A stretch of DNA of 64,000 nucleotides from an uncultured Planctomycetales bacterium (GTDB taxonomy: Bacteria; Omnitrophota; Gorgyraeia; Zapsychrales; JANLHA01): NCBI GenBank assembly GCA_964374105.1, contig CAYJXI010000006.1, forward strand, positions 2,177 through 66,176, written 5' to 3'. This document shows, piece by piece, positions 21,801 through 25,971 of the stretch (positions are counted from its first letter, which is position 1; each line of letters begins with the position of its first letter). The position numbers and the translations under genes were made by a program. The notes under the pieces are model-generated. The model saw only the letters and a program-made list of their open reading frames with translations. It was not told where the DNA came from and ran no database searches.

Positions 21801-24800
21801 AGCCGTTCTTTTGACCAAGGCCTTATTATCGGATGTGCGAGAAATCCCCGGCTGGTTTGCTCGACGGCCCGGAATGAAGGTTTTGTCAGGCAGCGGTTAC
21901 GCATTATCGCCATTTAAACCATCATCAGGGACAAAAGTTATTGTGGATGATCTTCCAAGACTTCCAACAGCGCCAAGTGGAGTTCCGATTTCCGGTCCGC
22001 CACGGGTTTCGCTCAACACCCCGCGAGGAACGCCGATTTCCGCTGGCAGACAACGTCCGTCTGTTGGTGCACCGCGTGAAGGCCCAGCGATTCAGCCGCC
22101 ACCACGTCCGGCCCAAGGGGATTTTGCCTATGATTTGCGAACCGAGGCTGGCCGAAAAGCATTGGAAACGGAAGAAAGAGCTATTCAGGCGGAGATTGAT
22201 AAAGCACGACTTTGGGGAGAAGAAACTAAGGATCTCAGTAAACCTTGGTTCCCTCTGGAATGGCAGCCATGGTATAAGCGGCTTCCATCGAAAGGACAAG
22301 CTCCCACTCCCAGACCGGTTGGGACAGAATCGAAAACGATAATCGATGGTATTCGTCGCGGTGTCCAGGATGATGTAGGAACCATGATTGATCGTCCGCG
22401 GTCGGGACTGACAACAAAGGTGGGGCCTGAGGCCGAGCTTCCCTCTGCAACAGCCTCAACAGTCATTGACCGCGCTGGTGCTCGTGCGGCTGATGATGTC
22501 GGCACATTGATTGATAAAAAACTTTCCACCATTACTCAGGAAACGCCTACCTTTATTGACCGTCCCCGGGCCGGCACCTCGGGAATCAATATTGAAGAAG
22601 ATTTTGCTGTGGATCTTACCACGAAAGAAGGGGTTGAACAGATGGATGATGTTCTGCGGCAGGCTGCTGAAGCCCGTAATTCGCAAAGGGCTTACCTTGA
22701 ACAGGGCGGACGTTTGCCGGTCCAGCATCCCAGAAGTCTTTTCCATGAACCTGGATTCAAAGATTTGCCAGAAAAAACCAGAGTGCTCCCCCGATTTGAG
22801 CCGCCGGATATTCATTCTACTCAAGTCCTTGAGCCAACACCGATTCGTCATACGGATGGCTCGGCAATCACGCGTCCTGGCAGTAATCGTCCTTTGATCC
22901 GGCAGGAGGGTAAGCCGATTACTCCTCGAACCGAACCAACGGTCGGCGGTCCGCGCGCCACAACAGTTCAACCGATTGATGAATGGGCAAAACGACGATC
23001 GGGAGATTTTACTGGACGCATTCCACCAGAATCGGTGGATGCAAAATACCTCATTGACCGGCCATTACAGCGTAAGGCCTTAGAAGATTGGCTGCTGCGT
23101 TCCCAAGCCGAGCGGGAAATGTTTGATGCCAAGATCATTAAAGCCCTTGAGGATGCGGCCTCCTTCGGAAACAAATGGGCGAGGCGTTTGTTAGCTGACC
23201 TCAAAAGCGGAAAATTTGATTTCTATTACACCTCGCGGTTAAAGGATGCGGGGTTGGCTTATGGGGATAACTATATTTTGATTAATCCTCTGAAACGGCC
23301 AGGCGTTAGTGATGCTTTAAGGAGTGCCGATGAACTGGCGAGCACTCTCCTTCATGAATACGTGCATGTCTATAGCGGAAAAACTTTAGGCGGTGTGCCT
23401 AAGACTGGGTATAACGAAGTCCGTGCGTTTTGGGCTGAGGCGATGTTTAACCGTGACCTTAAAAACGCACGGACATTCTGGGGCGAAGCCTTTGATGATA
23501 AGACATACAAAGAACTTCAAACCCTCTTAGGCATGAATTTATCCAAGCCCGGTGCAGTATCGACAATGGCGCGAGGTCTACGAGCCAGACGCAATCTACA
23601 AAGAGAATTGGTTGAACGTTATTATGGTTCTATGTACAAGGATAAATTAGCCCTGGCTATTGAGCGATTGTCGACTTACAAGGGCGGAAGCATGCGCGGG
23701 TTAAAGACTTTGCTAAGAGAAGTGAGTGATGCAGGTACGGATATGAACAAATTGGCAGCATTGATTGCGCGGGAAATGACGAAGAAGCGCCCGCAGCCCG
23801 TAACGTATGAAAAGCTTTTGGAGCGTATCTTGCAAGAAGGGGGAGCGGTGCGTCCTTCTGATGCTAAATCCATTGGCGGATTGCCGGAGAGTTTAACCAA
23901 TGTACCACCGAATCCACCGCCACCGATGCCGCGGCTAAGCACTGAGCGACCGTCACGCCCGTCAATTATGGGAGAGCCAAGACCACCGATTCGCCCGGAT
24001 ACTGAACCAACGATCGGGCCATCAAGAGAAGGCCCAATGATTCAGCCTCCGAAATCAACACCGATTATCCATACCGATCAAGGGGCGATTACACAGCCTC
24101 GAGATACGGTTCCGATTGTTCAGGAAAGAACACCCATTCGCCCGCAAACAGAGCCAACGATCGGTGCGCCACGAGAAGGCCCGGCGATTCAGCCACCCCA
24201 GAAAACCCCGATTATTCACACCGATCAAGGGGCGATCACGCAGCCTCGAGATGGCGTTTCCATAGTCCAAGAGAGGATTCCAATCCGTCCTGCCTTGGAA
24301 CCGACTGTCGGTAAAGCAAGAGAAGGAACAAAGATTAAATCATCCCTCGATGAAATTGATGAATATTTGGACTTTAGGACGATGGGGAATTTCCGAAATC
24401 GTTCAGCACCGCGGCGAATGGATCAGGAAGATTTGATTTCCCTGCCATACCGTCGAAAAGCAAGGACCTATTGGCGTTTGACCCGCGATGCAAAAAAGGA
24501 AGCCTTGGAACGTTCCATTATCAAGTCCTTAGAGGATGCCACTTGGATGGGCAACAAATGGGCACGGCGGTTGTTGGAGGCCTTAAAGAAGAAAGAATTT
24601 TCTTTCTACTATGATCCGGCATTACGGTTTAAGGGAATCGCTTTTGATGGCTCTTATGTGATCATTAACCCTTACCAGAATGCTGGGATGACAACGGAGT
24701 TTCTTTCCGGTGACGCCTTGGCGAGCACACTTCTTCATGAATATGTGCATTCGTATCGCGGCCGAACGTTCGCAGGGAATCTGAAGACCGGTTATAACGA

Positions 24801-25971: not shown

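Follow-up and report, generated by a model that had tools for sequence, protein, structure and literature searches.

Introduction

Zincin domains are familiar as terminal parts of large secreted proteins, and a further example is therefore unsurprising in kind. Tox-MPTase1–5 domains are small zincins with an HExxH motif at the C-termini of large secreted proteins, and such toxin tips have been described as distantly Wss1-like (Zhang et al. 2012, PMC3482391). The PVC-metallopeptidases (DUF4157) carry HExxHxxQ...E, with the downstream Glu on the third helix, and serve as releasing peptidases or as terminal toxins (PMC3482391); they usually lie N-terminal to a toxin domain and are tied to PVC/eCIS loci. 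The Wss1/WLM and SprT-like proteases (PF08325, PF10263) act inside cells on DNA–protein crosslinks or SUMO. Here we describe two tandem copies of an HExxH module in a giant open reading frame (ORF; 3371 aa, 15856–25971, + strand) located by ORF translation in a 64,000-nt stretch of contig CAYJXI010000006.1 (GenBank assembly GCA_964374105.1) from an uncultured bacterium of the Omnitrophota lineage; the whole stretch is hereafter called the window, and positions are numbered from its first nucleotide.

The module is similar in size and core to Wss1-like and Tox-MPTase-like minimal zincins; relative to Wss1/WLM and SprT-like proteases, it has three extra helices at the N-terminus and, at the C-terminus, a helical subdomain of ~120 aa, and it belongs to a protein that is exported. 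It is placed in the manner of the Tox-MPTase domains, yet the giant protein has no RHS, PAAR, LXG or filamentous-haemagglutinin parts. As in PVC-metallopeptidase/DUF4157 proteins, a zincin with HExxH and a downstream Glu lies inside a large exported protein; however, the module has Ser or Arg (HEYVHVYS, HEYVHSYR) where DUF4157 has Gln at +3, and PVC/eCIS loci are absent here. Thermolysin, M1 and M13 gluzincins are much larger than the module, which has neither GxMEN nor exopeptidase features and shows no significant sequence similarity to them. Since sequence and ligand tests failed for WLM, SprT, Tox-MPTase, DUF4157 and the curated gluzincins, the module has been filed under the zincin fold only. 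Judged from its sequence, it is a previously unannotated family of a known kind, and what is new here is the domain envelope, the conserved association with MORN_2 and S8 proteins and the tandem arrangement, which is unique to the window.

Two paralogous modules near the end of a giant protein

Module 1 (aa 2395–2672, 23038–23871, +) and module 2 (aa 2856–3133, 24421–25254, +) were delimited by paralogue comparison. A first-pass annotation of the window, made without database searches, had proposed two tandem, diverged copies of an uncharacterised HExxH zincin-like domain at the C-terminus of the giant protein. The duplication is borne out by BLASTP, in which aa 2281–2760 and aa 2761–3371 form a single alignment of 438 residues at 44% identity (E 9e-111); the duplicated unit, linker included, spans ~440 aa, and the trimmed module cores are 50–51% identical to each other. 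The start given for module 1 fits ours, that for module 2 (24470) falls ~50 nt late, and the modules lie near the C-terminus, not at it, with a tail of 238 aa (25255–25971, +) beyond module 2. No third copy was found in the window by tblastn.

All of the motifs quoted in the annotation are present. Motif searching placed HEYVH at aa 2500 and aa 2961, comprising His2500, Glu2501 and His2504 in module 1 (23353–23367, +) and His2961, Glu2962 and His2965 in module 2 (24736–24750, +), the latter also by alignment A2, an alignment of 17 modules with pairwise identities of 24–62%. The two HExxH occurrences in the giant protein (0.02 expected from composition) are at homologous positions. Downstream in module 1 lies NEVRAFWAE, with Glu2521 and Glu2528 (23413–23439, +; alignment A2 and model), and the glutamate of the corresponding 'NE' in module 2 is Glu2982 (24799–24801, +; alignment A2). 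Module 2 is the more diverged paralogue; it retains all 11 family-invariant residues and deviates at one of nine near-invariant positions.

The closest relative of each window module is the other window module (51% identity), the nearest outsider being P0001, with 43% identity to module 1 and 38% to module 2. Two copies were seen at none of 15 other loci, several of whose contigs stop within or just past the module. In P0008, a relative whose overall architecture and flanking genes match those of the window protein, there is a single module, with an insertion. Given the single-module P0008, the modest identity of the paralogues and the lack of two copies at the other loci, the duplication is, on these comparisons, lineage-specific and old.

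Pro-rich linker repeats ahead of the modules, also proposed in the first-pass annotation, were recovered as 147-nt (49-aa) direct repeats in two full copies and one partial copy (23979–24340, +; 78% DNA identity) before module 2, the full copies at 23979–24125 and 24126–24272, and as one diverged copy near 22915, ahead of module 1. The repeats were detected by a direct-repeat search and missed by Tandem Repeats Finder; the units are identical at 40 of 49 aa (BLASTP). From the 78% DNA identity, amplification of this repeat ahead of module 2 is judged to be more recent than the module duplication.

A second, shorter repeat lies further upstream, where a motif count gave four copies of T-[VLMF]-I-D-[RK] (TMIDRP, TVIDRA, TLIDKK and TFIDRP; aa 2176–2236, 22381–22563, +) against 0.03 expected in the window protein. 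The motif recurs six times in P0008 (aa 2075–2217), three times in P0009 (aa 514–574) and once each in P0007 (aa 95) and P0018 (aa 15). In its broader form, [AGS]-T-[VLMIF]-[IV]-[DE]-[RQK]-[PAV] (e.g. TMIDRP, TVIDQP), it is confined to the linker upstream of the zincin module, where it may mark a place of cleavage or docking.

Relatives of the module and its predicted fold

An exhaustive search of 1.84 billion cluster representatives with a HMMER profile built from both window copies found 18 proteins, 15 of them below 1e-10. All named matches are 'hypothetical', and one (P0003) comes from a metagenome-assembled genome (MAG) of a Candidatus Omnitrophota. A first genome scan using window-specific patterns gave no matches; pattern-seeded scans added one Elusimicrobia MAG, one Eisenbacteria MAG (L008) and four metagenome contigs. 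In plasmid and phage sequences, tblastn gave chance-level matches only (an M48 protease at E 0.09 and a Bacillus ADP-ribosyltransferase at E 0.4).

Eleven residues are invariant in A2 (numbered as in the giant protein): Ala2434, Gly2438, Trp2441, Gly2466, Pro2478, His2500, His2504, Glu2521, Arg2523, Ala2524 and Arg2539. The first-pass annotation had named confident homology to a non-catalytic helical domain without a conserved HExxH as evidence that would overturn its reading; instead, both His are kept in all 17 modules and the catalytic Glu2501 in 16, the other being P0016, whose cluster has HASVH. Conservation in the family peaks outside the active site, in the N-terminal helix motif IDEAAAxGDKWAxR.

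The AlphaFold model calculated from the 17-sequence alignment had a pLDDT of 91.4 and a pTM of 0.88, compared with a pLDDT of 45 when the two window copies alone were used. In order, it consists of three N-terminal helices, which carry IDEAAAxGDKWAxR, a three-stranded sheet, the HExxH helix, a hairpin whose length differs between members, a long 'NE' helix and a helical C-terminal subdomain of ~120 residues. HExxH lies within helix 97–111 of the model, and the next helix begins exactly at the NE glutamate (model residue 127). The model resembles almost exclusively zincins, and most of its structural neighbours are peptidases. It thus presents the predicted features of a zincin fold, namely a helical and conserved HExxH, a preceding sheet, a following helix with a candidate third ligand and a likeness to solved zincins. 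With a confident model of this kind and no match in the curated families, the description of an uncharacterised zincin-like domain in the first-pass annotation stands. Foldseek found nothing significant among viral models.

The P0016 cluster (11 members, mostly 243 aa, from ENA/Logan contigs) consists of a standalone module without the C-terminal helical subdomain, and looks from its sequence like a catalytically dead offshoot.

Relationship to known families and the third zinc ligand

Among Pfam families, SprT-like gave sub-threshold matches at the HExxH helix (E 0.035–0.19), in the set of 17 members to 4 (best E 0.15; 12–14 bits against a cut-off of 25.6), and Tox-MPTase2 matched one member over the strand and HExxH (E 0.25–0.33; 11 bits against a cut-off of 25). 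Peptidase_M1 (E 0.28) and WLM (E 0.26) were each matched by one of the 17, and PF13699 by none. The modules were unmatched in NCBIfam, PADLOC and PHROGs, and sequence searches of the PDB with the module returned nothing significant; a weak PDB profile match to an M1 aminopeptidase (E 0.31) aligns the preceding strand and HExxH. When compared by hhalign with thermolysin, HExxH alone was aligned, at a probability of 0.4%.

An NE pair after HExxH is the signature of the thermolysin, M1 and M13 gluzincins (NEAISD, WLNEGFA), while Wss1 and SprT complete the zinc site with a His six residues downstream of HExxH (HExxHxxxxxH). In the family described here, the glutamate of NE (Glu2521/Glu2982) is invariant and begins the next helix, 16 residues past the second His. 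Both window modules have Thr at +6 from that His, and A2 contains no conserved His downstream. The first-pass annotation had read the module as gluzincin-like on account of a different residue, the Glu of AEAMF (Glu2528; Glu2989 in module 2), which is present in 16 of 17 modules (Gln in P0017). Gluzincin-like remains our best guess, with the glutamate reassigned: because NE is invariant and opens the next helix, and there is no third His as in Wss1 and SprT, we consider Glu2521/Glu2982 the moderately better candidate for the third ligand than Glu2528, as far as the alignment can tell. Despite the likeness to Wss1 and SprT, a role as a DNA–protein-crosslink protease was rejected, the window protein being exported and the ligand pattern different.

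Architecture of the giant protein and its relatives

The giant protein begins with a signal-peptide-like N-terminus, followed by a coiled coil, a Cys-rich domain, Pro/Gly/Thr-rich spacers and Cys-bounded helical repeats, and continues with a conserved central region, linkers, the two zincin modules and the 238-aa tail. Its sole strongly hydrophobic segment is the signal-peptide-like stretch at aa 10–28, and similar N-termini were recognised, on reading the sequences, in most full-length relatives. By sequence count, all 35 of its Cys lie within aa 259–1383, where they make up the Cys-rich domain and the pairs bounding each helical 'DPC' repeat (~72–95 aa), a distribution that would fit an oxidising, extracytoplasmic location with disulfide bonds.

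The central region (aa ~1432–2000, 20149–21855, +; BLASTP, tblastn and alignment A5) is composed of beta-rich repeats, a charged coiled coil and a helical segment closing in a Gly-rich hydrophobic stretch LTAVGYAVDIGLLVAGGKIF. It is common to P0001, P0004, P0008, P0009 and P0017 (BLASTP and alignment A5) and was also detected by tblastn in loci L001, L002, L004, L007, L008, L012 and L015. The proteins sharing it (the window protein, P0001, P0004, P0008, P0009, P0017 and those of L002, L004, L007, L008, L012 and L015) are here called type I. Type II relatives (P0006, P0012, P0014 and P0015) bear the module on an unrelated N-terminal body, and P0002, P0003 and P0010 have an N-terminal architecture different from both.

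The protein ends ~10–30 residues past the module in P0001, P0003, P0004, P0005, P0007, P0010, P0012, P0014 and P0015. Unrelated tails follow the module in the window protein (238 aa), P0008 (~130 aa), P0002 (~390 aa), P0017 (~100 aa) and the L006 gene. The tail of the window protein had no Pfam, NCBIfam, PADLOC, PHROG or PDB match and no similarity to that of P0008.

Some individual relatives show further peculiarities. In L006, the P0006 module is split between two ORFs (3715–8775 and 8772–9602), its C-terminal helical half (NLQEGILD...ERLSKYKGGS...GGRTQ) lying in the second, overlapping ORF, which runs on into a tail of ~170 aa; this suggests a frameshift or an assembly error. P0002 (L003, GCA_024449835.1) contains past the module, at aa ~695–730, a bromodomain-like sequence YYDVVKSPMDIDRVLEKI with sub-threshold PDB matches (E 0.03–0.07). 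The protein is without a signal peptide, its gene adjoins a Y1 transposase, and it might act as an effector on a eukaryote. A visual impression of a nuclease-like C-terminus in P0002 found no tool support and was discarded, the sub-threshold bromodomain-like motif being all that was detected. Two small conserved linker elements, 'QMTRAERQAYND' and 'NLT.EQID.LF..G..LT.EQ.L.K.D.I.SGR.P', were recognised by eye in P0004, P0011, P0015, P0017 and the L006 tail; their position relative to the module varies, upstream in some proteins and downstream in others.

Conserved gene neighbourhood

The giant ORF stands between two genes for exported proteins. Upstream, at a distance of 9 nt, is a gene for an exported MORN_2-repeat lipoprotein (456 aa, 14477–15847, +; Pfam MORN_2 E 4e-75, 14 repeats), whose true start is likely the ATG at 14492 and whose lipobox reads LLIGC. 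Downstream, at 31 nt, an exported S8 subtilase protein is encoded (1199 aa, 26003–29602, +; Pfam Peptidase_S8 E 6e-56), in agreement with the earlier remark that a protease is encoded next door. Cys-rich repeats occupy its N-terminal half, and its subtilase domain (aa 805–1082) contains DSG, HGT and GTS.

At the P0008 locus (L001), the order MORN_2, giant, S8 is repeated, the junctions being a 3-nt gap and a 4-nt overlap; its MORN protein is 35% identical to that of the window, and its S8 protein 54% identical over 827 aa. Overall, MORN_2 is adjacent in five loci (the window, L001, L002, L008 and L015), the exported MORN_2 gene being immediately upstream and divergent in L002, L008 and L015. 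The MORN proteins of these three look orthologous, so the five loci represent about three lineages. An S8 gene occurs in three loci, the window, L001 and L008, in the last ~3 kb further upstream. Downstream, the S8 gene follows in the window and L001, and genes unrelated to each other at the remaining loci; immediately downstream of the module gene, where polymorphic toxin systems usually have their cognate immunity gene, no conserved small gene was seen among the loci compared.

A Cys-rich unit with C-Y/H/F-E-C motifs is found in both the giant protein (aa 321–496, 16816–17343) and the S8 protein (aa 177–420), with a BLASTP E value of 5e-4, and between P0008 and the S8 protein the match reaches E 2e-8. 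Its presence in both hints that the two proteins may share a common location.

Among type II relatives, the genes of P0012 and P0015 adjoin those of a conserved set of exported ~230-aa proteins, which are 36–50% identical and have faint PG_binding matches (L009 8234–8956, +, and 15097–15774, −, two paralogues, one on each side of the gene; L010 1761–2459, −). No shared partner gene was seen at P0004, P0003, P0010 or P0007.

In COG and NCBI, MORN_2 proteins carry the name 'YwqK antitoxin'. YwqK itself is much smaller than the 14-repeat protein of the window. YwqK-type MORN_2 genes (COG2849) of Fusobacterium lie, like the present one, beside genes for giant surface proteins; the gene is upstream or divergent here, whereas it is downstream in the Fusobacterium setting. 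There, MORN2 genes cluster with giant autotransporters, and the YwqK-like domain prompted the suggestion of a toxin–antitoxin relationship (bioRxiv 10.1101/534297).

Possible functions of the modules

On balance, and with modest confidence, we favour the explanation that the two modules are paralogous catalytic zincin domains, probably gluzincins, that act in trans as extracytoplasmic endopeptidase heads on an exported fibrous protein forming part of a three-gene unit. The data show the duplication, the conservation of the motifs, the zincin fold, the export signals and the synteny; that the modules bind metal, cleave peptides and act in trans, and what the partners do, is inference. The proposed zinc ligands are His2500, His2504 and Glu2521 (module 1) and His2961, His2965 and Glu2982 (module 2), with Glu2501 and Glu2962 as the general base. 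The modules would be tethered by Pro-rich linkers near the distal end of a Sec-exported, disulfide-containing and largely fibrous protein, and would cut, for example, proteins in the envelope or on the surface of other cells, or those of a matrix. Within the tightly spaced unit of exported MORN_2 lipoprotein, giant protein and giant S8 subtilase, the MORN_2 protein would most likely handle the zincin or keep it in check, whether as inhibitor, as immunity factor or for docking, and the subtilase may mature the giant protein at the repeated linkers. The ~230-aa exported partner of the type II proteins may have such a role too. For giant Omnitrophota proteins, a part in prey adhesion and envelope digestion has been proposed (bioRxiv 10.1101/2023.11.21.568195); by analogy, a role against other cells would fit this proposal, which does not amount to proof.

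Several observations weigh against the favoured explanation. No peptidase family matches the module sequence significantly, Foldseek returned nothing significant from the PDB, and the best structural matches (Wss1) use a third His that is absent from the module. The P0016 clade has lost the catalytic Glu altogether. No outer-membrane export route was identified for the giant protein and, to our knowledge, no function has been proven for MORN_2 proteins.

A more specific proposal, which we regard as speculative and rather unlikely, is that the zincin and the exported MORN_2 protein constitute a new toxin–immunity or protease–inhibitor pair of ultra-small, possibly predatory or epibiotic bacteria (Omnitrophota, Eisenbacteria and Elusimicrobia), working as a contact-dependent device. 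A long exported fibre would present one zincin warhead (two here) to a neighbour's envelope, the subtilase would mature or release the warheads, and the MORN_2 protein would protect the producer's own periplasm. Such a device for antagonism or predation would be unrelated to T5, T6 or T7 secretion or to Rhs, and its peptidase would be a new family at MEROPS level. The first-pass annotation had itself suggested effector or toxin domains freed by processing, a suggestion favoured by the adjacent MORN_2 gene of five loci and the S8 gene of three. The classical polymorphic-toxin pattern of variable tips on a constant scaffold was not seen in the sequences compared: the module is constant across at least two unrelated N-terminal architectures, which is the reverse of that pattern. 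A search for the central scaffold with other C-terminal tips gave no matches, using a word-indexed method that also missed known members. Module 1 and the 17-sequence alignment likewise drew no matches by this method from a collection that does contain relatives, so that these negatives count for nothing.

Turning from the favoured reading to its rivals, the one that survives best, unlikely as we hold it to be, is that the module is a cis-acting releasing peptidase that cuts the giant precursor, for example at the linker motifs, and so frees the 238-aa tail as the real effector or sheds the fibre. The unrelated tails past the module in the window protein, P0008, P0002, P0017 and the L006 gene would suit this, as would the recurrence of T-h-I-D-[RQK]-P only in linkers upstream of the module in several relatives. 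There are analogues in the PVC-metallopeptidase, caspase-like and CPD domains of polymorphic and MARTX-type toxins, and zincin and other peptidase domains that release toxins sometimes double as C-terminal toxins (Zhang et al. 2012, PMC3482391). Yet most complete C-termini end so soon after the module (~10–30 residues) that nothing would be left downstream to free, and no tail matches a known toxin domain. Moreover, a single cut would not need two tandem copies, and a dedicated S8 protease is already co-encoded.

We consider it improbable that the module is an inert or purely binding zincin fold, employed in adhesion, in docking to MORN_2 or in fibre assembly. The HASVH of the standalone P0016 cluster points in this direction, as do the location of the strongest conservation in IDEAAAxGDKWAxR instead of the active site and the conserved pairing with a repeat protein. 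However, HExxH, the NE glutamate and two Arg are kept in 16–17 of 17 modules that are 24–62% identical, both window copies included, and this is hard to explain without catalysis. About as improbable in our view is a non-peptidase HExxH enzyme, either an Fe(II)/alpha-ketoglutarate oxygenase (as ChlH, PflC and PosC) or a metal-dependent hydrolase with a non-protein substrate such as peptidoglycan or nucleic acid, since, although HEXXH oxygenases are established in pathways for RiPPs (ribosomally synthesised and post-translationally modified peptides; PMC12636437) and type II relatives adjoin proteins with faint PG_binding domains, the protein is exported, RiPP and radical-SAM neighbours are absent, alpha-ketoglutarate would presumably be unavailable outside the cytoplasm and peptidases make up most of the structural neighbours. 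Oxygenases of the ChlH/PflC type are cytoplasmic and belong to RiPP clusters, often fused to or beside radical-SAM or precursor genes, a setting that the giant protein does not share.

If the modules are active, as the favoured explanation holds, they would represent a new zinc-peptidase family covered by no curated library and confined to uncultured lineages, in which hardly any giant protein has been interpreted; the 278-aa module would then offer a clonable enzymatic handle on the function of giant exported proteins. The genes for MORN_2 protein, zincin fibre and subtilase together make a unit of three that can be tested. MORN_2 proteins occur widely and, in Fusobacterium, are enriched next to giant adhesins, a setting to which a protease–partner relation, if demonstrated here, would extend. 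The value of the result thus lies in a new family and a new association, not in a new principle, and it should be of use to specialists in proteases, toxins and candidate phyla.

Other features of the window

A promoter and terminator scan of the window performed no better than on shuffled sequences. A strong terminator-like hairpin is present at 14417–14442, just ahead of the MORN gene. Further upstream lie a gene for a phage-tail-fibre-like protein of 744 aa with a C-terminal Peptidase_S74 intramolecular chaperone domain (10609–12843, +; PHROG tail fibre E 7e-26) and, following it, an ISL3 transposase (13052–14125, +). Elsewhere the window encodes a PEP-CTERM protein, two dockerin-bearing proteins, one of them di-haem peroxidase-like, and an ankyrin-repeat protein of 512 aa (32200–33240, 33357–35483, 35560–37800 (−) and 49402–50940), a gene content that fits a surface-active, possibly Omnitrophota-like organism.

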